Shown: positions 73 through 17,297 of the stretch, one piece after another
Layout of the letters: every line of letters begins with the position of its first letter
Position numbering within the stretch: position 1 is the stretch's first letter
Origin: a virus
Taxonomy: Duplodnaviria; Heunggongvirae; Uroviricota; Caudoviricetes
DNA length: 24,587 bases
Virus record (IMG/VR): IMGVR_UViG_2724679236_000014
Span: 1-24,587 of that record
Reading direction: 5' to 3' (one strand)
Position numbers and translations under genes: made by a program
The notes under the pieces: model-generated
Told to the model about the DNA's origin: nothing
The model's input: the letters and a program-made list of their open reading frames with translations, nothing else
Database searches by the model: none

Positions 73-404
73 CAGTTCACCACTTCATCAAACTGACACG
101 AAAAATCGGTATAGGTGATATGTTCTGTAGCTGACCACGTTCGACACACCACTCTGATTTTTCTGTTAACACCCGGTGGACGCCAAAAAAAAGATTTATA
201 GCCTCCATGCCGTGCTAAAAAATTTTCGAATGAATCACGTTCATTCGCCTCAACCTTGAAATCACAGGTGAAAACACGTAGAGAATGATTAAGTCCATTT
301 GGACTTCGTTGCTCATAACCATCGCCAAATCTTACAGTTTTTATCGATGGTTTATTTTCTGTTTTCATTCCATCCTCTGGTAACCAGTGGAATTCTTCAG
401 CCAC
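72..404 (-). CDS. M: Minor tail protein M-like (110 aa)
   Basis: Supplied ORF; contains VRFGDGY, HGGYKSF and a C-terminal F(D/E)xVVN resembling lambda gpM; sits between the tape measure gene and L. Confidence 0.8.
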
Positions 405-3400
405 TTAACATTCCTCCATCACGTCGCATATTTAACAAAGTGCCCTGCACTCGCTGATCAACCATTCCCATAAGTGTTCTAATTGCCTGAGGGCCAATCT
501 CTCCATTCTGTCCGTCATTTTTGATAGTAATTTGATATACAGGAGAGTAATTAATGTCTCCGCCTCCATTACCGCCTTTATTATTAATCGCCCTGACACC
601 AAGAGAACCATCGGAAGTTCGTGTTAATGGCATAATAGCTTCCGGTCCAGCCTCACCAAAAACACCAGCACCTTTTGCAAAAGCAAAAAATTGCGGGGAA
701 TCATAAATACCGTTTGAATATGTACTCAATGATGGAGACTCATAAACACCGCCCTTTGCATTAGGAATAAATTTACTAACAGCACTTCCGATAGTTCCTA
801 AAATCCCCCCAGAAGAACTGTTGCTAATGCTGTCGAAAATCCCGGTAATTGAAGCCTTTAATGCTATTCTGCTAAGATCTGAAATCACGGAGGTAGCGAA
901 AGAACGAAAATTTGCCTTACCTGTCGTGACAAAATCACCAAGCGCATCTGTCATCCCATCAAACATCTGAGTCGTGGTTGATTTTATCTGCCCGCTAATA
1001 TCCTTAGTGTTATCCAACCAGTTATTGAATCCTTGGGACGCCCCACTTACCCAGTCTCCAGCCTGAATATCGAGCTGCTCATTTTTCTGCCTGATAATTT
1101 CTTTTTCCCGCTCCACAGCATCATTCAGGGCCTGTATTTTTTCCTGAAAAACACGTTCAGACATTCCACGAGATTTATCCGCATAGTCACGTTCAAGTTG
1201 CAGACGCCGGTTGTTATATTCACGTTCAATCCGCAGTAATTCCTGCTGACGTTGCTGATTTTTATCGCCAAGTCCATAACCAGCGATCTGAATGTCATAC
1301 CCCTGCTGATGATTATCAATAGAAGCCTGCAATGAACTACGCCATGCGGCTATTTCGGCTGACTCCTTGATTAGCCTGTTATTTTTTTCAATCGCAACAT
1401 TTTTCTCCATCAACGCGGTTATTTCTTCCCGGTGTAAGAGAAGCGATTTCTGATCCTTAGTTAATTTTGATGTCGGACGAGATTCAAGATCGACTATTTG
1501 CTGGCGCCACTTAACCAGTTCCTGCTCAGAGGAACTTAATTTAACTGTCAATTCAGCTTGTGAACTTAGTAACGCATTCTGTTGATTCAGATGGTCAATC
1601 ATTCGTTGGGCGGCATCATCTGAATAATTCCGTGTTTTTGGTGATTTTGGATCTTTATATAATTCATTAATGCGAGAAATATTATTATTATATTGCTCTT
1701 CACTAATAGCCCCTGCATCCAAAAACTTCTTCTGCTGCCTGATTGCTTTACTTCTTTTTTCTGCATTAGTTAGATACTGTTGGTTAACACGATCGGCCTC
1801 CTGTTGAGTCTGAATTCGTTCTTGCTCAGCTTTACTTGCTGCAGAAATGGCCCCAGTAATATCTGCCTGAGCCGCCATAGTTAGCTGAAGAATGTTTAAC
1901 TCTTGCTCAAGCTCTTTTCGACGTGAGGCAAAAACAGTTTTTCCACCGACAGCGTTATCAATCCAATCAAGCTCCTTGCGGATTTGAGTGATACGCTCAT
2001 TTCCACCAGACACACGACCAACATCAAGCATTGCATCCCAAGCTTTTTTCGCTGTACCAGCTAAACCATCCCAGGCTTTTTCAAGAAGCCCAAGATTTTG
2101 CTGGATTTCTGATGTACGCTGCTGTAAAGCCTGAGAATAAACGTCAGAAGCTACCCTAGCCGCCTCCTGCTGGTTCCCTTCATCCTGTAGCGCCTTAATC
2201 TGGTTATAAGTCGCCAGTGTCAGAAAATGGTACTGATCATTAAGTTTTGATATGGCACTGACAGGATCCTTTGCAATTTCATTGAAATTATTAACCAGTT
2301 GATCGGTCGATATTCCAGTTAATTCGCTCGTTTTTACTATCGCTGTCGTCACCTGCTCCAGCGAACTGCTCGCGACCTTTCCCGAACGCACAAGCTGGTT
2401 TAATACTGCCGCCGCAGCGCCAGTTGTCGAATCAGCAGCATCCCCGGCACGTTGAGCTATATCGGCTAATTGCCCGCTGGTTGTCCCCAACTGATTTCCG
2501 GTAAGAATAAGAGATTTATTAAATTCGTCCTGCTCCTGAGAACCTTTATAGTAAGCTAGCCCCAAGGCGCCAACGGCTGCTGCGGCCAGGGTAAAAGGAT
2601 TAATTAATCCCAGCACATAAGAACCAACACCTTTGATCGCCGGGCCAATCCCACCGAACATATCTTTTAGCTGGCCGCCCTGCTGCATTAACACCATAAA
2701 TGGCGACTGACCAGTGGACAACCCAACAACAATATCCGTCATTTGTGCAGGCAACATGCGCATAGCAAAAGCTGTTTGTTTTGCTGACATTCCGGTTTTG
2801 CTGAGTTGCGATTGAGTAGCCTCAAGCTCACTCCGCATAGCATGGAGTTTTCCTGAAAGCTCCTCATACATTTCAGGAGAAAGCATCCCCTTGGCTTTTG
2901 CTTCGCTGAGTTGCTTTTGCTGCTCTGTCAGGCGGTTAAAAGCTGTTCCAACAGGATCGAGTTGAGCAATCAGACGTTGCAAAGCAGCAACTTGTTCATC
3001 ATGCGCTTTTGCTGCTTCTCGTTCTGCCTGAGCCTCTCCTGTTAGCTCTCGCCGCGTTTCCTGTATTTTTCGGCTGTAATTATCAAACTGAGAGCCATTT
3101 ATTTTCCCGGAAAAAAGTGCAGCATTAAGTTCATCCTGCTGTTGATCAAGATTTCTTAGCGCCGCAGCCAGAGGGTCGATCTTGTCCAGCATTCTTTGAA
3201 AGGCCTGAGCCTGCGCTTCCTGCTGGGCGGCAGCAAGTTTTCCGGCCTTCTCGGCCTCTCTCTGCGCTTGCGCAACCCCGCTCAATTCCTCTGTGGTTTC
3301 ATTAAGTTTACGGGCAAGAAATTCATATTCTTCTTTATCAATAAGCCCTTTATCGAAATATTTCTTTAATTCAGAATAGCGTCGACCGACAGTATCAATT

Positions 3401-3606
3401 GCGGCACCAACTGGATCAATAGCTGCTTTTAATTTTGCGAGCGCGTTCTTCTCGTCTTCTGTTGCCTTAGTCACTTTCCCTGCGCTATTTGCAGCAGTTT
3501 CCCCGGCCTGCGTCATTTTGACTAATGATGAGGTCAGATTATCAGCATTATTTTTCGCTCCAGAGCTATCAATAATTATTGCAAGACGTGAGGTCTGCTC
3601 TGCCAT
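397..3606 (-). CDS. Tail tape measure protein (1069 aa)
   Basis: Very long Ala/Gln/Glu-rich coiled-coil ORF with a Gly-rich hydrophobic central segment, located downstream of the tail chaperone genes. AGGAG lies 9 nt upstream of the ATG at 3606. Confidence 0.9.
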
Positions 3607-3622
3607 TTATTAAAACTCCTGA

Positions 3623-3651
3623 CAACAAAAAAAACCCACCGAAGTGGGTTT
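3623..3651 (-). terminator. Intrinsic terminator-like hairpin with U-tract immediately upstream of the tape measure RBS
   Basis: Plus strand 3632-3651 is aaacccac-cgaa-gtgggttt (8 bp stem, tetraloop); on the minus strand it is followed by TTTTTGTTG and then AGGAG and the ATG. Confidence 0.45.
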
Positions 3652-3771
3652 CAGGCGACATAATAGTAGATATAGCGATTACGAGGCCACGCAATGCTTT
3701 TCTCCAGGAGCATCATCGATTTAATTAAAGACACTATCACATCTCTGTAACAGAGTGTACGTAATTAACAA

Positions 3772-4529
3772 CTACACACACTGCTCCTGAAAATACTGGT
3801 CATCCAGTGCAAAGATCACTGCTTCAAATTCATCGCGCTCAATCAATACCGGATGAGTGGCTAAATATTCATTTATCTCTGACAGAGATAAAGGCAAAGG
3901 CACCCCAGCCATTCCAGCATAACGCCGGGCACGGGATATCACCGAATAGGCGTACAACAATTCCCTAATAACCGGATCTATTTCTGGCTCCGGGAGCGGC
4001 GGCAACCTGAGCTTTTCTCGTTTCCACCTTGCCTTTTCACCCTTTTCTCCCCCGAACTCCGATATCCACCGCTGGGCGGCAATGGCTTTTTTATCGTATC
4101 CTGCTTTTGCTGCTCTTTTCCCTGGGCGATTCTGGCGGCTTCTGCAAGGATTTGCCAGTACAACTCTGGATTCTGCTTGAGCAGCGCAGCACCTCTTTCT
4201 GGTGTATATTCCAGCGCGACCTCAACACCATCTACCAGCTCTCCAACCCCTTTCCAGTCTTTCAGCAGATAACGAGCGGCGTTATCAATGAGTAAATCAT
4301 CAACAGAGTCCACCTCGACGACCTTTGCAATATCAAACGCCTTCGTTCCGACATGCAAACTGGCATCCATTTTCTCAATGTGGCGACGGATTAATGCATT
4401 ACGGGAGCGATACTGATCATTATCACTGCTTGCCACCAACAGTTGTAACCCAGCAATAGGTTCTAAGTCTTTCATTGGCGTAAACCAGCGTTCTCCACCG
4501 ATGATAATTTTCTGTTCAAGAATAAACAT
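3772..4529 (-). CDS. Tail assembly chaperone GT-like fusion made by programmed -1 frameshift at 4122..4116
   Basis: The -1 frame is open from upstream of the slippery heptamer G GGA AAA down to the stop at 3772 (supplied 77-aa ORF is its tail, called with a TTG start); arrangement matches lambda G/GT. Confidence 0.65.
3978..4529 (-). CDS. Tail assembly chaperone, gpG-like zero-frame product (183 aa)
   Basis: Supplied ORF between major tail and tape measure genes; GAGG RBS upstream of the ATG at 4529. The last ~46 residues after the slippery site are K/R/S/G-rich and look like a low-complexity tail. Confidence 0.7.
   Translation of the reverse strand: MFILEQKIIIGGERWFTPMKDLEPIAGLQLLVASSDNDQYRSRNALIRRHIEKMDASLHVGTKAFDIAKVVEVDSVDDLLIDNAARYLLKDWKGVGELVDGVEVALEYTPERGAALLKQNPELYWQILAEAARIAQGKEQQKQDTIKKPLPPSGGYRSSGEKRVKRQGGNEKSSGCRRSRSQK
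4116..4122 (-). promoter_or_regulatory. Candidate -1 ribosomal frameshift slippery heptamer G GGA AAA
   Basis: Plus strand 4116-4122 is ttttccc, i.e. GGGAAAA on the minus strand, with GGA and AAA as zero-frame codons of the G-like ORF (X XXY YYZ form). Confidence 0.6.
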
Positions 4530-4549
4530 CTATAACCTCATTCAAAACG

Positions 4550-4576
4550 CCCCCTGTTGCGCAATATCACAGGGGG
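4550..4576 (-). promoter_or_regulatory. Stem-loop between major tail and chaperone genes, possible attenuator
   Basis: ccccctgt (4550-4557) pairs with acaggggg (4569-4576), 11-nt loop; only a short U-tract (GTTTT) follows on the minus strand. Confidence 0.3.
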
Positions 4577-4588
4577 AATAACGGAAAA

Positions 4589-5551
4589 TCAACTAATCGA
4601 CTCAGCACTGGCTTTTGCAATCACTGCAGCCGGGGAAGCTTTTTTTCTGGTGATAGTTGGCGCTTCGTCAGCAGCGGTAATGCTCAACTGAACCTGGATA
4701 ATATCGGTATTACCGCCGTCAGGCCATTCACCTGATATCTGAACTTTAGGAAAACTGAAAGTGTATTCCCCCTCACCATTCGAAAGCGTGAAATTGAACG
4801 GAACAGTCTCCCCTGTCAGCGTTTTACTCCATATTTTCCACGCAGCTTTAGACCATGAAAGCGTCACAGTACCGGACGGTGTGAAGGTTGTCGGAATATT
4901 AGCTCCGGCATAAGGAGAACCAGTCCCGACACAACGCTGGGTCTGAAGTTTGTTATCGAACTGGATATCAAAGCTGTCGATACAAAAACCGTTACCTCCG
5001 GCAACACCATTCAGACTTACAGCTGAAACTTCCTTAAACGAATAACGTAACTTTCCTGCACTATCTACAGGCTCGCCTTTGATAAAATTCGTATCATCGG
5101 CCTTTGATTCCCAGTCCAGCCCGGCAAAAGTGACTGTCGCAGTAATATCACCGTCGTTAGGGATCTGCATTTTCCACGATCCAACCTGTGCCCCCCTGAC
5201 GATAGAGGCAATTCCCACATCTGACGCATATGTTGCCAGAGAAAATGTTATTCGCTCATTCCCCATAGTCAGAGAATCTCCTGACCATTCCGCGCCGAAA
5301 CAGGATGCAAGGAAATCATCATGTTGGCCCCAGCGAAATTTGGTACCAACATCACCGCCGACATCCACAGTGCCAGGCGTCGCCCCCTGAGCCATACGAG
5401 AACCACCGATCTCATTATTTTCGCCTTTATTCTGGGTTGGTTTTACTCCCCAGCTTGTGCGCTTTAATAAACTCCAGTCACCACTAGCTGGCGTGGTGCC
5501 TGCAATTGTCTCCCGGATAAATGCCGAGATAACCTTTGCACCTGAACTCAC
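4589..5551 (-). CDS. Major tail (tube) protein with a C-terminal Ig-like region (320 aa, GTG start)
   Basis: Supplied ORF; start codon is GTG (plus cac at 5549-5551) with AGGAGG 5 nt upstream; Ser/Thr/Gly-rich beta-type composition; position directly upstream of the G/GT chaperones. Confidence 0.8.
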   Translation of the reverse strand: MSSGAKVISAFIRETIAGTTPASGDWSLLKRTSWGVKPTQNKGENNEIGGSRMAQGATPGTVDVGGDVGTKFRWGQHDDFLASCFGAEWSGDSLTMGNERITFSLATYASDVGIASIVRGAQVGSWKMQIPNDGDITATVTFAGLDWESKADDTNFIKGEPVDSAGKLRYSFKEVSAVSLNGVAGGNGFCIDSFDIQFDNKLQTQRCVGTGSPYAGANIPTTFTPSGTVTLSWSKAAWKIWSKTLTGETVPFNFTLSNGEGEYTFSFPKVQISGEWPDGGNTDIIQVQLSITAADEAPTITRKKASPAAVIAKASAESIS

Positions 5552-12008: not shown

Positions 12009-14324
12009 TTAAATCCGAAGTGATGTAACTCTTCCGGTCGGTTTGACAATAGGGAATTGCTTAACAATAAAATAACCTCCGGCATCATTCGGGTGATCGT
12101 TGCCAGATTTTTTATCAGGCTCACCCTTGTCATCCCAGACCTGTTGCTCCAGAGATTCGGCATATACCGGACAACGCTTCACATTAACTTTATAGCGACG
12201 CTCACCATTGGCATTGCAGAACATTGCATTCATTGAGTTAACGCGATCTTTTACTGGCGGATTCGAACTGTTTACAACAACGTTAAAACCAGCCTGTTTA
12301 AGTTGAGCAATATCCGTCGCACTTGCGTTATTTGATTTTCTGGAATCCCCGGATGCATCAGGATAAATATAAATTTCCCTTACTTTCCGATAATCATTCC
12401 CGTCATATAACCAGAAGCGCTCTTTAATAATACGGATCATATCTGGTGTATCGTAAGCGTTAATGATTTCAGTTACTGCACATGGAAGCCCAAAACGTAA
12501 CACATGAACGACTCCAGCCATTTTTCCGACGTTAAAATCCATCCCGATATATATCGGCTCACCTGGCTGTTCCTCTTCTTCGCAATTATTCAGTTTTCGG
12601 TCAAACTGATGGTAAACAGTACCACTTGTCAGGTTAGTAAACTGTCCTCGAAGATAGGCTTTAATCAGCTCTGGAGGATATGACTCAAGGAGCGAGGGAA
12701 TGTAATCTGCTGGCAAATTCTTTTCATTATCGAAAGTAGATGCCTGTACCAGACCATACAGTGAGACCAGCTCTGTTTTTTCACGTACGGCTTTAACAAA
12801 CTGCTCGTAGACAAATTTGAATCCTTCCGGCGTGGTTGTAACGTCAATACCGTTGCGAAGTCCATCAACCTTATAACGCATACGCGCAATTATCTTGCGC
12901 CACGCTGTTCTGGCTTTTTCCTTCGGCAAAATGTCCAGTTCATCCACCAGCGCATTACCAATTTTGAAACCGACGATCGTTTGCGGCTTCTCCATCGATC
13001 TGCAGATAGTGGTTCCCCGATACTGACGTCCGTAATAAAAATGAACTTCTTTATTTCCCTCGTTAATTTTTACATTTAGCCCCCAGTCGGCAGCAACTTC
13101 TTCAACTGTGGGATAAAAAATATCGCGAATTTGTGGATATGTAGGCGCAAAATATCCCTGATTGATACCCGGATGCTCCCAAATCCCCTTACATATGCCA
13201 CCACACCCAACCCATGTTTTACCGCTATTGTGATGAATCGTCCCATCAGCAGTTACGTAGCAGTTATTATCCAATACCTGGAGGTCATAATATGGCTCGG
13301 CCTCCTGCAACAGTGTTACACTCAATATGTTGCAGGTTTCGATTAAGGAGTTTGGTTTTGACGCCTCTTGACCATTTAATTTGTGATTTAGCACATCCAG
13401 AACGTACCGTTTCAGAAGTTGCTTCTCTGGCAGGTTGTGACCGCAGTCATGTTTATCGTTGCATATCTCGTTATGGGTTAACGCTGAAACAACGCCAGAA
13501 GCCTGTCCCTCGAGAAAATGCGAAGGACAGAATCCTCGCTCTTGCTGATGGTCACCGTACGTCGGCAGAGATCGCGGCGGAAGTTGGTTGCACAGAAAAG
13601 CACGTTCAAAATATTCTCCGAATTCACAACGCCAACCGGCTCCCCCGTGGCGCCAGAAAGGGTGAGTTGAACCCCAGCTTTCGTGGTGGTCGAATTGTTG
13701 ATCTGGATGGATATGCCGTTGTTCCAGCGCCTGCTGACCATCCATATATGCGCAGAACAGGCATGATGTTTGAACATCGTTTGATCGCTGAAAAGAAGCT
13801 GGGGCGTTATCTGCTGCCATCAGAAGTTGTTGACCATATCGACGGGCTTCATCTGCATAACACCCCAAGTAATCTGCGAGTTTTTGATTCAAACGTGGAT
13901 CACCTGCGTGCAACGATTTCGGGACGGCGGCCAAACTGGTCAGAAGAAGGTTTTGCGAAGATGCAAATACCTTCACCGATTCGTCCAGACTATCCACAGA
14001 TCGATAGCTACCGTCAGCGCAAAAAACGCGGTGATGTCCGCTTGCTACAAATTCTCCTCGCTGCGTCACTACTCGGTATAGATTCGCCACACCTTTTGGG
14101 TACGCACCACCACTTAGCGAAAGCTCAAATCGATTATTCTCATCCGACCAAGATAAAACGCGCATTGGTCGAGTTATTTCCTGAATGGGTAGAATCCCAT
14201 TCTCTGTAACCACAGGCGTACTTCCCCTCAGGCAACCAAAACCAGCAACATAGGCTTTAAATTTATGATGCATAGAAAGAAATCGCGCCTGAGGCACATT
14301 AAGCGTCGGAGAGATCATCTTCAT
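12009..14324 (-). CDS. Terminase large subunit interrupted by an in-frame intein in the Walker A P-loop; predicted spliced product about 435 aa
   Basis: Exteins join as ...KAYVAGFG + SGKTW..., giving the Walker A motif AGFGSGKT; Walker B-like ALVDELD and nuclease-type IYIGMDFN and YPDASG motifs lie in the C-extein. Start is uncertain (ATG at 14324, 14318 or 14345); the supplied ORF's further N-terminal extension to 14756 overlaps terS in another frame and is not taken as coding. Confidence 0.85.
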   Translation of the reverse strand: MKMISPTLNVPQARFLSMHHKFKAYVAGFGCLRGSTPVVTENGILPIQEITRPMRVLSWSDENNRFELSLSGGAYPKGVANLYRVVTQRGEFVASGHHRVFCADGSYRSVDSLDESVKVFASSQNLLLTSLAAVPKSLHAGDPRLNQKLADYLGCYADEARRYGQQLLMAADNAPASFQRSNDVQTSCLFCAYMDGQQALEQRHIHPDQQFDHHESWGSTHPFWRHGGAGWRCEFGEYFERAFLCNQLPPRSLPTYGDHQQERGFCPSHFLEGQASGVVSALTHNEICNDKHDCGHNLPEKQLLKRYVLDVLNHKLNGQEASKPNSLIETCNILSVTLLQEAEPYYDLQVLDNNCYVTADGTIHHNSGKTWVGCGGICKGIWEHPGINQGYFAPTYPQIRDIFYPTVEEVAADWGLNVKINEGNKEVHFYYGRQYRGTTICRSMEKPQTIVGFKIGNALVDELDILPKEKARTAWRKIIARMRYKVDGLRNGIDVTTTPEGFKFVYEQFVKAVREKTELVSLYGLVQASTFDNEKNLPADYIPSLLESYPPELIKAYLRGQFTNLTSGTVYHQFDRKLNNCEEEEQPGEPIYIGMDFNVGKMAGVVHVLRFGLPCAVTEIINAYDTPDMIRIIKERFWLYDGNDYRKVREIYIYPDASGDSRKSNNASATDIAQLKQAGFNVVVNSSNPPVKDRVNSMNAMFCNANGERRYKVNVKRCPVYAESLEQQVWDDKGEPDKKSGNDHPNDAGGYFIVKQFPIVKPTGRVTSLRI
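13227..14234 (-). mobile_element. Intein (336 codons) inserted in the TerL P-loop
   Basis: Block A-like CLRGSTPVVTENG starts with Cys at 14234..14232; block B-like SGHHRVF; C-terminal blocks YYDLQVLDNNCYVTADGTIHHN end with His-Asn (Asn codon 13229..13227) and are followed by Ser(+1). Codons were checked against the plus-strand sequence. Confidence 0.8.
13358..14209 (+). CDS. HTH-HNH homing-endonuclease-like ORF encoded antisense inside the intein (TTG start, about 283 aa)
   Basis: Plus-strand translation contains HNH_3-like EHRLIAEKKLGRYLLPSEVVDHIDGLHLHNTPSNLRVFDSNVDH and two HTH-like segments; TAAGGAG (13344-13350) lies 7 nt upstream of an in-frame TTG at 13358. The C-terminal ~95 codons overlap the intein N-terminal blocks on the other strand and look like non-coding read-through. 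Confidence 0.55.
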   Translation: MTPLDHLICDLAHPERTVSEVASLAGCDRSHVYRCISRYGLTLKQRQKPVPRENAKDRILALADGHRTSAEIAAEVGCTEKHVQNILRIHNANRLPRGARKGELNPSFRGGRIVDLDGYAVVPAPADHPYMRRTGMMFEHRLIAEKKLGRYLLPSEVVDHIDGLHLHNTPSNLRVFDSNVDHLRATISGRRPNWSEEGFAKMQIPSPIRPDYPQIDSYRQRKKRGDVRLLQILLAASLLGIDSPHLLGTHHHLAKAQIDYSHPTKIKRALVELFPEWVESHSL

Positions 14325-15393
14325 CACACCTAACTCTGGCATCAACCACATTAATATTGATCGCCACAGGCTGGGGATGTTCATTACCCTCCACCGTTTC
14401 GATCTCTTTGCGCAGTTTCTGGTTTTCCATTCTGCGCCGTTCAATTTCCAGTTCCTGTAGTCGCTTATCTGCACATAATGCCCCGCCAGCGGAAAGCAAA
14501 CGCAATAATTCACGCCGGGCGGCAGCTTTATTCTCCAGCAGGATCTCAACGCCGAATTTTCCGAGCTTTGCTCCTGCATACAATTGCCGCGCATTTCCAT
14601 CAAGCAAAGTGGTATCAGCCATATAAAGCTGACCTGTACCTTCTCCACCGCATTTCGGACAGTCTGGATTTGGTATGGCGCTATCAACGAAACCGAGGCC
14701 ACCATATTCAGGTTCTGGTTTACCATCTTTGGATGCCTGCGCGGCAGCCCTGTCAAATTCTGCTATATCGCGCCACTGATAGAGGTGATTCTCCCCCCAG
14801 CAATAGCGACAGTTAACACGGCGAAATTGCGCAAGCTGATTGGGATCAGCCTGCACGATGGCCATCAACTGACTCACCAGTAAATCCAGGTCTGCGGTAT
14901 AGCGTTTCTGGTAATGATTGCGAAAGTAGCTGATGGCACGAAAAACCCTAGCATTTCTAAGCATACGACTGGCATTGCTGTTTGCTGTCGCACCTTGCCC
15001 CTCGTAACCAGCCAGGCGGTATGCCTCTGTCGGCTTTTTCCCCTGAGCAACCAACATGGCGAATTTTGCCTGCTGGTCAGAAATACCGAATTCATCGGGG
15101 CAAAACGAAATTTCTTCCGTGTCCCCCTCAATCAGGAGTGCATCGGATACAGCCTTTTTTTTCTGAGATTTTCCGTTTTGCTTTTGCGCAGTCTGCGCAG
15201 TTTTTTTTCGCGCACTTTTTTGCGCAGTTTTGCGCACTTCTGTCTGCGCATTTTTCGGAGGTTTCTTGATGTAACGACGGGCTGTTGCGTAATTCAGTCC
15301 CTTTGCTTCACACCACGCCACCGGAGATACACCGGAGCGGGTGTATTCAGCAATATATTCCTGCTGCAACGCCCCCCAGTCCGGTCTGCTCAT
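14299..15393 (-). CDS. Terminase small subunit-like protein (364 aa): N-terminal HTH, Lys/Arg-rich repeat linker, C-terminal CxxC...CxxC zinc ribbon
   Basis: Supplied ORF immediately upstream of and overlapping terL; N-terminus (EYIAEYTRSGVSPVAWCEAKGLNYATARRYI) resembles TerS DNA-binding domains; CRYC and CPKC pairs. Confidence 0.6.
   Translation of the reverse strand: MSRPDWGALQQEYIAEYTRSGVSPVAWCEAKGLNYATARRYIKKPPKNAQTEVRKTAQKSARKKTAQTAQKQNGKSQKKKAVSDALLIEGDTEEISFCPDEFGISDQQAKFAMLVAQGKKPTEAYRLAGYEGQGATANSNASRMLRNARVFRAISYFRNHYQKRYTADLDLLVSQLMAIVQADPNQLAQFRRVNCRYCWGENHLYQWRDIAEFDRAAAQASKDGKPEPEYGGLGFVDSAIPNPDCPKCGGEGTGQLYMADTTLLDGNARQLYAGAKLGKFGVEILLENKAAARRELLRLLSAGGALCADKRLQELEIERRRMENQKLRKEIETVEGNEHPQPVAININVVDARVRCDEDDLSDA
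15185..15250. repeat. Array of six (T/C)GCGCA palindromic hexamers separated by T-tracts, inside terS
   Basis: Hexamers start at 15185, 15194, 15209 (cgcgca), 15221, 15231 and 15245, spaced 9-15 bp apart with intervening T runs. Confidence 0.6.
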
Positions 15394-15396
15394 CAG

Positions 15397-15648
15397 TTAG
15401 TCCTGATTTTTATCCACCCTGAGTAATGCACGCAGAGCAAAGGCATCCCCTTTTCTGGCAAGCTTAAACAATGCCGCCCGTAGCTCGGCTTCACCTTTCG
15501 CTCTGCCCTTACGGATGGACGCATAAAAATTTGTCATTGTTTCCCGATTTTCTTTCAGTCTGTTCAGATCAACATCCAGAACGTCAGCGATTTGTTGTGC
15601 AGTCATCCGGCATGCTGCCAGAGACTCGACTTTCGAATACGGAATCAT
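15397..15648 (-). CDS. Small HTH-containing protein (83 aa), possibly packaging-associated or regulatory
   Basis: Supplied ORF ending 3 nt before the terS start; TAQQIADVLDVDLNRL resembles a helix-turn-helix. Confidence 0.4.
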   Translation of the reverse strand: MIPYSKVESLAACRMTAQQIADVLDVDLNRLKENRETMTNFYASIRKGRAKGEAELRAALFKLARKGDAFALRALLRVDKNQD

Positions 15649-16516
15649 TTATCACCCCCATTGATATGCAGGGTGTCTTCTTCCTGTATTTTTCGTGAAG
15701 GATTTTTACTGCAGCGTTGTTCCAGGTGACCTGATGGTGAATGCGTTTATGGCTGGCGCCCATCAGTGAGATTTTTACGCACGACGGCGCATACATGACG
15801 GAGTAAAAACTTTTAACGTAGGTACCGGAATCCAGATACAGTTCGGTCATTCCGCCGCTGTTTTTCTGCGTTTGCTTCTGCCCTAACTGGACAGCGCCAA
15901 TCGTCAAAAACAATTCACCACGACGACCGAGATTCGTGTATGTATTCACATCCTCGTTAATACGCCCCATAAATGAGAATGGTCGGTCAACAGAACAAAT
16001 AAAGCTGTTCATTGCTTTGCGTTTCACCCATGCAGCATGACCACCATTATCACCAAGAAAGTCTCCCCCCTGCGCCATAGCGATGGAAAGCGCAGGAATT
16101 GATTCGTAATACGCCAGCATTTCAGAAAGGATCGCGTCCAGTTTCCTTATCGGAAAATAAGCCTGGTCATAGTTGCGATCTACCCGAAACTGAAACTCGT
16201 GATAGTCGTCATCAAGCTGGATGTAGTATTTACACCCAACCTTTTTTGCCAGGCCCAAACAGGCATTCCTAGCATAAAAGATTGAACGTCGATCGCCAAA
16301 GTTGTCGGCTTCGTCAAAACGACTGGCGATATCGGCTTTGGAAAACACCAGCACCTGCTCACCAAATTCTGCTACGTACTGATGCTGGGTTTTATCTTCA
16401 TCATCAACAACGATAAAAATTTTCCCGGTATAGCCAGCACGACGCAACGTCCGGTAAGTCAGAACTTTGTCCGGTCGCCCGTGAGTCAGAATAAAGGCGC
16501 AAAAATCATCACGCAT
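15584..16516 (-). CDS. GT-A fold (family 2-like) glycosyltransferase-like protein with no obvious membrane segment (about 310 aa from ATG 16516)
   Basis: N-terminal FILTHGRPDKV...IFIVVDDEDK resembles the GT2 signature (hhhPTYNR...IVVDDGS); a DDD (DxD-like) motif sits in YIQLDDDYHEF. The ATG at 16516 follows GAGGAGGAG and the ParB-like stop (TAATATG). Confidence 0.45.
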   Translation of the reverse strand: MRDDFCAFILTHGRPDKVLTYRTLRRAGYTGKIFIVVDDEDKTQHQYVAEFGEQVLVFSKADIASRFDEADNFGDRRSIFYARNACLGLAKKVGCKYYIQLDDDYHEFQFRVDRNYDQAYFPIRKLDAILSEMLAYYESIPALSIAMAQGGDFLGDNGGHAAWVKRKAMNSFICSVDRPFSFMGRINEDVNTYTNLGRRGELFLTIGAVQLGQKQTQKNSGGMTELYLDSGTYVKSFYSVMYAPSCVKISLMGASHKRIHHQVTWNNAAVKILHEKYRKKTPCISMGVINDSVFESRVSGSMPDDCTTNR

Positions 16517-16517
16517 A

Positions 16518-17297
16518 TTACTCCTCCTCGCCATGCATGATCTCCACCATGCGCTGCGTCATCCTGACAAACCCATTTTCAATTGCCTGCTGATAATCAA
16601 TGATCACCAGAGCCGATTCCTCAAAAAGGCTCTGAATTTCAGCGGGGGCGTGAGCGTAATAGTCCGCGATTCTGCTGAAATTAAACACCGTGTGACGTTC
16701 TGCCGCGCACAGAAGGAATTTCTCAATATCAGGATCAAGGGACACCGAACGTATCCGGCTGATCAGCTCCTGAGTTTTCGTATCGTCGTACAGTTCACAG
16801 ATATCCGGTTTATCGCCTGACGGCTCATAAACAGGCGTATCAATTTTCGTCGTATACGGCTCCTCCTCATTTCCTGTACCAGGCAAAATATCCGTCAACA
16901 GTTCATCAATTTCTGTCGGGCTGAAGCCTGTCAGGGAGACATCAAAATCAGCATTAATTAGGTCCGACAGCTCCATCCGTAACAGATCTTCATCCCAGCC
17001 AGCATTCATCGGCAGGCGATTATCTGCCAGACGGTACGCCTTTTTCTGATCATCCGTCAGACCAGACAGAACGATGACCGGAACGAAATCCATTTTGAGC
17101 ACTTCAGCCGCCATAACGCGACCGTGACCCGCAATAACTTCGCCTTTTTCATCAATCAGCACCGGATTAGTCCAGCCAAATTGCTTAATGCTTTCTACCA
17201 GTTGCGTCACCTGCTCAGGGCTGTGTGTCCTGGCATTGTGTGCATACGGAGACAGTTCTTGTAACGGGCGATAGACGATCTTCAATTTCTCGCTCAT
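16518..17297 (-). CDS. ParB-like nuclease domain protein (259 aa)
   Basis: N-terminal ParB/Srx-type motifs: YAHNARTH and GHGRVMAA (GxxRxxA box); acidic C-terminus; GAGG RBS upstream of the ATG. Confidence 0.75.
   Translation of the reverse strand: MSEKLKIVYRPLQELSPYAHNARTHSPEQVTQLVESIKQFGWTNPVLIDEKGEVIAGHGRVMAAEVLKMDFVPVIVLSGLTDDQKKAYRLADNRLPMNAGWDEDLLRMELSDLINADFDVSLTGFSPTEIDELLTDILPGTGNEEEPYTTKIDTPVYEPSGDKPDICELYDDTKTQELISRIRSVSLDPDIEKFLLCAAERHTVFNFSRIADYYAHAPAEIQSLFEESALVIIDYQQAIENGFVRMTQRMVEIMHGEEE

Follow-up and report, generated by a model that had tools for sequence, protein, structure and literature searches.

The G and GT proteins of bacteriophage lambda are produced by a programmed -1 frameshift on the heptamer G GGA AAG, in a ratio of 30:1 (Levin 1993; Xu 2004, 2013, 2014, summarised in PMC5009743). 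The gamma and tau products of Escherichia coli dnaX involve another heptamer, A AAA AAG, at which the sole tRNA-Lys pairs more strongly with the AAA of the -1 frame than with AAG, and here a 3' stem-loop accompanies a product ratio of 1:1 (PMC5009743). A_AAA_AAG_25 is also the cluster to which Sharma et al. (2014, PMC4066793) assigned ECs1801 of the E. coli O157 Sakai prophage Sp9, a case described as 'safely inferred'. The same authors measured all 64 heptamers in E. coli reporters (Table S3). Given in turn for no stimulator, the IS911 stimulators and the IS3 pseudoknot, the frequencies of -1 shifting were 0.29, 4.3 and 39% for AAAAAAG, 0.28, 3.8 and 43% for GGGAAAG, the lambda heptamer, and 0.12, 0.51 and 17% for GGGAAAA, with an unstimulated background of 0.055% for a reporter that holds no motif. 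AAAAAAG is therefore comparable to the lambda heptamer and 2.3- to 8-fold above GGGAAAA in E. coli, where G_GG.A_AA.A is among the motifs named as inefficient (PMC4066793).

We describe a locus very probably of this kind in a stretch of viral DNA of 24,587 nucleotides (the window), in which a zero-frame gene on the minus strand, G (4529..3978, ATG start, 183 aa), overlaps a -1 frame that runs to 3772. As in lambda, the two overlapping ORFs are flanked by the major tail gene on one side and the tape measure gene on the other. The former, encoding the tail tube, is directly upstream of G (5551..4589, minus strand; Pfam Phage_tube_2, E 3.3e-30; PHROG 290), and a tail terminator gene is also found upstream; the latter, of 1069 aa, lies downstream (3606..397, minus strand; PHROG 24, 1057 bits), in agreement with an initial annotation of the sequence that had placed the chaperone gene just before it. 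That annotation had also predicted a -1 frameshift leading to G and a longer GT product. The type of event and the conserved -1 ORF stand, but the site most likely does not: we put at roughly 0.85 the probability that a lambda-style programmed -1 frameshift is used here and that it would occur at A AAA AAG, 4092..4086 on the minus strand.

The identification of the zero-frame product as a tail assembly chaperone holds up well. The G part matches PHROG 313, 'tail assembly chaperone', with an E value of 7e-44 over profile positions 21-148 of 258, and the T part aligns further along this profile, at positions 180-246 (E 5.2e-3), and also finds phrog_1189 (E 1.2e-35). Against Pfam, the T part finds PF23812, Phage_TAC_18, at E 3.8e-4 and 20.9 bits, below the 27-bit cut-off, while the G part finds no family at E<=1 and has no match in NCBIfam; the precomputed family assigned to the homologues is PF27119.1. 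An AlphaFold model of the fusion has pLDDT values of 70-89 in the G part and below 60 in the T part. When this model, poor in its T part, was used for a fold search of BFVD, 15 matches were returned at E<=1e-3, all the named ones being tail assembly or tape measure chaperones, with target-normalised TM-scores of up to 0.58 (0.68 for a match at E 1.9e-3). Several are chaperones of 230-270 aa, the length of the fusion, and align across the entire model. Foldseek of the same model against the PDB gave nothing at E<=0.001, and a PDB sequence search gave one chance match (E 0.36). Judged by family and gene order, with which the BFVD matches agree, the gene at 4529..3978 very probably encodes a tail assembly chaperone of G type and belongs to a lambdoid prophage that is Rac-like (YdaY family).

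The slip site first proposed was GGGAAAA at 4122..4116 (minus strand). Its register is as had been described, the ORF reading CAG GGA AAA at codons 137-138 in the form X XXY YYZ, and the -1 frame is indeed open to the stop at 3772, from 4221 to TAG 3774..3772. A shift at this position would place the linker in the -1 frame from codon 139 (RAAKAGYDKK...), with the predicted junction ...IAQGKRAAKAGYDKK..., and the motif has in its favour a likeness to the G GGA AAG of lambda and a reporter frequency above background. A heptamer in register is, however, no more than chance would supply in this A/G-rich overlap of 245 nt: of 5000 shuffles that preserved dinucleotides, 56% held at least one (mean 0.84), and of 5000 shuffles of the zero-frame codons, 48% did (mean 0.69). 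By itself, such a motif is weak evidence in an overlap of this composition, and it was comparative data that decided between two candidates lying 30 nt apart.

Our survey comprised 236 analysable loci from genome and viral collections, representing 102 distinct contexts of 180 nt, from prophages of E. coli/Shigella, Citrobacter, Klebsiella and Serratia type in which the identity of G to that of the window goes down to about 60%. These loci are not phylogenetically independent, so that the counts given here overstate the number of independent events. By megablast, about a fifth of the complete E. coli genomes carry the locus (1073 of 5426); nearly all of these copies are 90-95% identical and only two reach at least 99%. 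Across the 102 contexts, the first codon at the position of GGGAAAA is GGT in 81, GGC in 9, GGA in 9, GGG in 1 and GCT in 2, and the codon for Lys138 is AAG in 55 and AAA in 47, such that both codons vary synonymously and the site is slippery, as G GGA AAA, in only 9. The combination of GGT or GCT with AAA or AAG creates a TAA in the -1 frame in 83 of the 102 contexts (208 of the 236 loci), at which a ribosome that had shifted here would terminate immediately. Two phage relatives of about 92.7% identity illustrate the point, since both have G GGT AAA, and thus the -1-frame TAA, at this position; the same pair retains A AAA AAG CCA TAG further on, with a G of 149 aa in each. Together with the low efficiency of the motif in reporters, this makes it most improbable that G GGA AAA is the programmed site. 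We consider it probably a lineage-specific synonymous variant, GGT to GGA, which would serve at most as a minor or weak secondary slip site.

The second in-register heptamer of the overlap, which the initial annotation missed, is A AAA AAG, 30 nt downstream of the first at 4092..4086 (minus strand), where it covers the codons for Lys147 and Lys148 and follows ATA. This position is occupied by A AAA AAG in 100 of the 102 contexts and by G GGA AAG in the remaining two. Lys147 is encoded by AAA in all 100 contexts that have a lysine, the synonymous codon never being used, and Lys148 by AAG in all 102. The codon before A AAA AAG is invariably ATA or GTA, the last base of the preceding codon matches the heptamer in every one of the 102 contexts, and the -1 frame is open at the site. 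The two exceptional contexts come from four loci on viral contigs (L168, L170, L171 and L174), in which GTA AAA AAG has become GTG GGA AAG. This replacement involves three bases and changes lysine to glycine, yet it retains a top-ranked slippery X XXA AAG, exchanging the two best slippery heptamers of E. coli for one another at a single position.

The pattern of substitution points to the same place. As a rough measure of constraint we took, for each frame, the number of extra amino-acid types divided by the number of extra codon types. Over codons 1-136 this ratio is 0.33 in the zero frame, 0.86 in the -1 frame and 0.80 in the +1 frame, and over codons 149-183 it is 0.85, 0.51 and 0.89, respectively. 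Between the two candidate sites the values, which rest on small numbers, are 3/6 in the zero frame and 5/5 in both the -1 and the +1 frames; most substitutions in this stretch are silent in the zero frame, whereas every one of them alters the residue in the -1 frame, which again tells against a shift at the upstream heptamer. Synonymous variation and conserved residues in the -1 frame begin with the first codon past A AAA AAG, where the residues are A (GCC in 102 of 102), I or L, E or A, A, Q, K or R, and W (102 of 102). From this switch at 4092..4086 we infer that translation continues in the zero frame through the upstream heptamer and that the frame changes at A AAA AAG.

We suggest that expression of the locus would proceed as follows. 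Most ribosomes would remain in the zero frame and produce G, while a small fraction would slip back by one base on A AAA AAG, two tRNA-Lys re-pairing from AAA-AAG to AAA-AAA, and would then read GCC ATT GCC... in the -1 frame as far as TAG 3774..3772. The T part thus defined has 104 codons (4085..3772, minus strand); its first codon, GCC at 4086..4084, shares the last G of the heptamer. Joined to residues 1-148 of G, it would give a GT fusion of 252 aa, for which we predict the junction ...EQQKQDTIKKAIAAQR... and the junction peptide DTIKKAIAAQRW. If the division of labour is that of lambda, the tape measure protein would be coated by G together with the G part of GT, and the T part would recruit the tail tube protein, with the low rate of slipping setting the ratio of G to GT. 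That ribosomes slip, how often they do so and what G and GT do are inferences; the anatomy of the sequence, the pattern of conservation, the family assignment and the fold matches are as observed.

An identical junction (KK-AIAAQ) would also result if RNA polymerase, slipping on the run of six A, added one A to some of the transcripts, and some bacterial and IS genes do use transcriptional slippage (PMC5009743). The run at this locus, however, is only 6 A, and the replacements found in relatives (G GGA AAG, G GAA AAG) contain no more than 3-4 A in a row although they keep the potential for tRNA re-pairing. Productive transcriptional slippage normally needs homopolymer runs longer than 6 A. The strict use of AAG as the last codon is, moreover, predicted by ribosomal slippage with tRNA-Lys and is not needed by a homopolymer. 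Polymerase slippage is accordingly a very improbable source of GT, and ribosomal slippage on A AAA AAG remains the preferred reading.

We found little around the site from which the efficiency of such slipping could be judged. When the 63 nt starting at each of the two heptamers were folded, for the window and for three relatives, the result was no better than with shuffled sequences (z from 0.41 to -1.32). A CCGC-CCA-GCGG hairpin 6 nt past the heptamer was considered as a stimulator and rejected: it is present in the E. coli clade, its sequence is not conserved in the Citrobacter and Klebsiella clades, and folding is no better than for shuffles. A scan with Rfam for frameshift elements found none, its best match in 3500..4600, rsmX (E 0.96), falling not at the slip site but at 3629..3759. 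With no significant RNA structure and no Rfam element, the rate of slipping is not predictable. Upstream, an invariant AGGA lies 6 nt before A AAA AAG and overlaps conserved Gln-Asp/Glu codons. It could conceivably be an unusually close Shine-Dalgarno-like modulator. The stimulator of this type in dnaX is found 10 nt upstream of its heptamer. The site in the window thus resembles dnaX in its A AAA AAG and in the logic of tRNA-Lys re-pairing, but differs from the dnaX type of cassette in that its only Shine-Dalgarno-like element is the AGGA at 6 nt, not 10, and in having neither a significant structure nor a stable stem-loop downstream.

Since both heptamers of the window are in register and feed a single open -1 frame, it may be that both are used, with A AAA AAG as the main site and G GGA AAA as a minor one. 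The reporter frequencies of the two (0.117 against 0.291% unstimulated, and 0.51 against 4.26% with the IS911 stimulators) would allow the latter roughly a tenth to a quarter of the GT, perhaps, and would lead us to expect GT in two forms, alike in length but with 10 different residues in the linker. Both heptamers are carried by 16 of the 82 close loci; this state is nevertheless in the minority and scattered over clades, as would fit neutral drift of the third base of the glycine codon. We regard a minor contribution from the upstream heptamer as a tentative proposal, its chances falling somewhat short of even, alongside the main shift at A AAA AAG.

Database records offer a different view of the locus, in which a short -1-frame 'hypothetical protein' is annotated separately, and on this basis T might be translated without recoding, from an internal start (TTG at 4005 or the ATG of the annotators), or the locus might be the remnant of a decaying prophage. 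The latter idea draws on two relatives. The first is ydaY of the Rac prophage in E. coli K-12 (L248 2493-2852, MG1655), which is 92.9% identical over query bases 105-776, retains A AAA AAG CCA TAG and has a tape measure pseudogene, ynaA, after it. The first ~35 codons are missing from this ydaY, which overlaps ynaK at the latter's end and lies in a deleted, defective prophage; its annotation as 'protein YdaY' gives neither function nor recoding. Judged by this alignment, the K-12 'protein YdaY' is an N-terminally truncated remnant of the chaperone gene of the window. The second is the copy in E. coli MEI003 (L247 4597-4953), 99.4% identical to 3760-4535 of the window, which the NCBI annotation pipeline marks as an incomplete pseudogene ('missing C-terminus'), a call that is likely due to the loss of a TAG and the resulting departure from the 149-aa YdaY model. 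The prophage of the window may be defective, its usual G stop being lost and this near-identical copy being annotated as a pseudogene. The neighbouring structural genes of the window, however, are all intact, and no start codon in the -1 frame after the heptamer is conserved in a per-codon table of the 102 contexts. Conservation of the coding type begins ahead of the TTG by about 28 codons and ahead of the first ATG by 67, and the matches to PHROG 313 and in BFVD treat G and T as a single polypeptide. An origin of T without recoding therefore has very little in the way of probability, and a shift on A AAA AAG is preferred here also.

In one natural relative, protein P0001 (E. coli NB16F79_39920, 240 aa), G and T are already fused in frame in the genome. 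The fusion was apparently brought about by a deletion, in which ILAEA is joined to GYDKKAIAAQRW... and which is 12 residues shorter than GT. A copy of this type would yield GT alone, with no free G.

The initial annotation had also noted that, unlike lambda, the zero frame runs on past GGGAAAA for about 46 codons of low complexity. The run-on is real: we count 45 sense codons before TAG 3980..3978, and the zero frame extends 35 codons past A AAA AAG. Its explanation is a simple one, in that most relatives have a G of 149 aa and the usual stop, TAG, has mutated to TTG (4080..4078, minus strand, by alignment), hence the low-complexity tail. This change, from CCA TAG to CCA TTG, adds 34 codons (the tail PLPPSGGYRSS...SQK) to G and is found in 7 of the 82 close loci, the window counted, G being 149 aa long in 64 of the 82. 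Over the 102 contexts, the zero-frame stop is one codon past the heptamer in 80 and otherwise 7, 25 or 35 codons past it. Read against the -1 frame, the 'low-complexity' tail is simply the start of T translated out of frame.

Nearby point changes distinguish the window from the common YdaY-type prophages, among them GGT to GGA, which creates an additional slippery heptamer, G GGA AAA, and removes the -1-frame TAA, and TAG to TTG, which removes the G stop. If they acted together in this minority lineage, the result would be tandem slip sites and a basic G tail of 35 residues, and the G:GT ratio and the mixture of isoforms could be retuned. We think such a joint effect unlikely.

Deeper relatives were sought by tblastn of annotated phages with the 252-aa fusion, and these distant phages, too, hold G and T in two frames. 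The Pseudomonas phages phiPSA1 and Aurca01, at ~33% identity, read CTG GAA AAG CCA TTG at the junction, where G GAA AAG provides A AAG for slipping but has an imperfect codon in the P site; their zero frame continues for 20 codons. In the Acinetobacter phage Ab1656-2 the junction is CTG GGA AAG, giving G GGA AAG, and the zero frame continues for 24. Run-ons of 20-24 codons in these phages mean that a long zero-frame tail is not unusual in the wider family. In the Pseudomonas and Acinetobacter phages the junction lies 27-30 residues ahead of a conserved T motif, PxPxEP, and in these alignments it is the AAG codon for the A-site lysine that appears as the constant feature across the wider family.

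Set beside the described systems, the pair in the window is closest in organisation to lambda G/GT. Besides the overlap in the same place between tail genes, it shares a -1 shift, predicted here, on a heptamer of the form X XXA AAG towards the end of G, a shift that leads to a longer GT fusion, and we count as a further likeness that no RNA stimulator was found at the locus; the lambda heptamer itself, G GGA AAG, occupies the position equivalent to 4092..4086 in four related loci. It differs from lambda in having A AAA AAG as its heptamer, with a zero frame of 35 codons beyond the site, in a gap of 165 nt with a terminator-like hairpin between T and the tape measure gene, and in that neither G nor T has detectable sequence similarity to the gpG and gpT families, the Pfam models of lambda gpG and gpT giving no significant match to either. 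In position, heptamer and coding constraint, three of the criteria of the class (Xu, Hendrix and Duda 2004), the pair corresponds to the lambda arrangement, and it would appear to work in the same way. The class is further defined by the production of G and of GT, at roughly 30:1, and by a need for each of them in the assembly of tails. ECs1801 has the same heptamer, the AGA AAA AAG TAG geometry seen in most relatives of the window and the same location between the major tail and tape measure genes. It is, however, not homologous, with no BLASTP alignment at E<=100 and a length of 124 aa as against 149-183 aa, and so does not belong to the same family as the chaperone of the window. The locus is, on this comparison, an ordinary and unannotated example of a well-known phage device, and no new mechanism is implied. 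GenBank and RefSeq carry no recoding annotation for it, the products being labelled 'protein YdaY' and 'hypothetical protein', and a literature search combining ydaY with frameshifting found no paper that links the two. The main gain is one of annotation: the ydaY family, the Rac remnant of K-12 included, would acquire a function, and the gene pair its correct product of 252 aa.

Some further features of the window deserve mention. The hairpin in the gap between T and the tape measure gene (3771..3607) consists of GAAACCCAC TTCG GTGGGTTT followed by T8, at 3652..3631 on the minus strand, and so separates the stop of GT from the start of the tape measure gene within what is presumed to be a single late operon. 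The content of this gap varies by clade: a Citrobacter locus (L004) has another hairpin and T-run, in two loci of Klebsiella type, L087 and L192, it holds a small ORF that resembles a lipoprotein gene (MKKVIALALGALLLSGC...), and a further locus (L238) has a membrane-protein-like ORF. The gap looks like a slot for inserted accessory genes.

Elsewhere in the window, the adjoining genes at 16534..15584 and 17297..16518 (both minus strand) encode a TET-associated glycosyltransferase (Pfam TAGT, E 1.5e-35) and a ParB_N-domain protein, the ParB_N match falling just under the Pfam cut-off. The terminase genes follow directly downstream of this pair, whose domain content suggests that it is a cassette for modifying phage DNA. 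The frame of the large terminase subunit itself (14756..12009, minus strand) is open for 915 codons from a TTG, and the Terminase_6N and Terminase_6C domains cover only residues 511-899 of it. Its upstream half overlaps, in a different frame, the ORF of the small terminase subunit (15393..14299), and this upstream extension is probably a mere open frame and not a real part of the protein.
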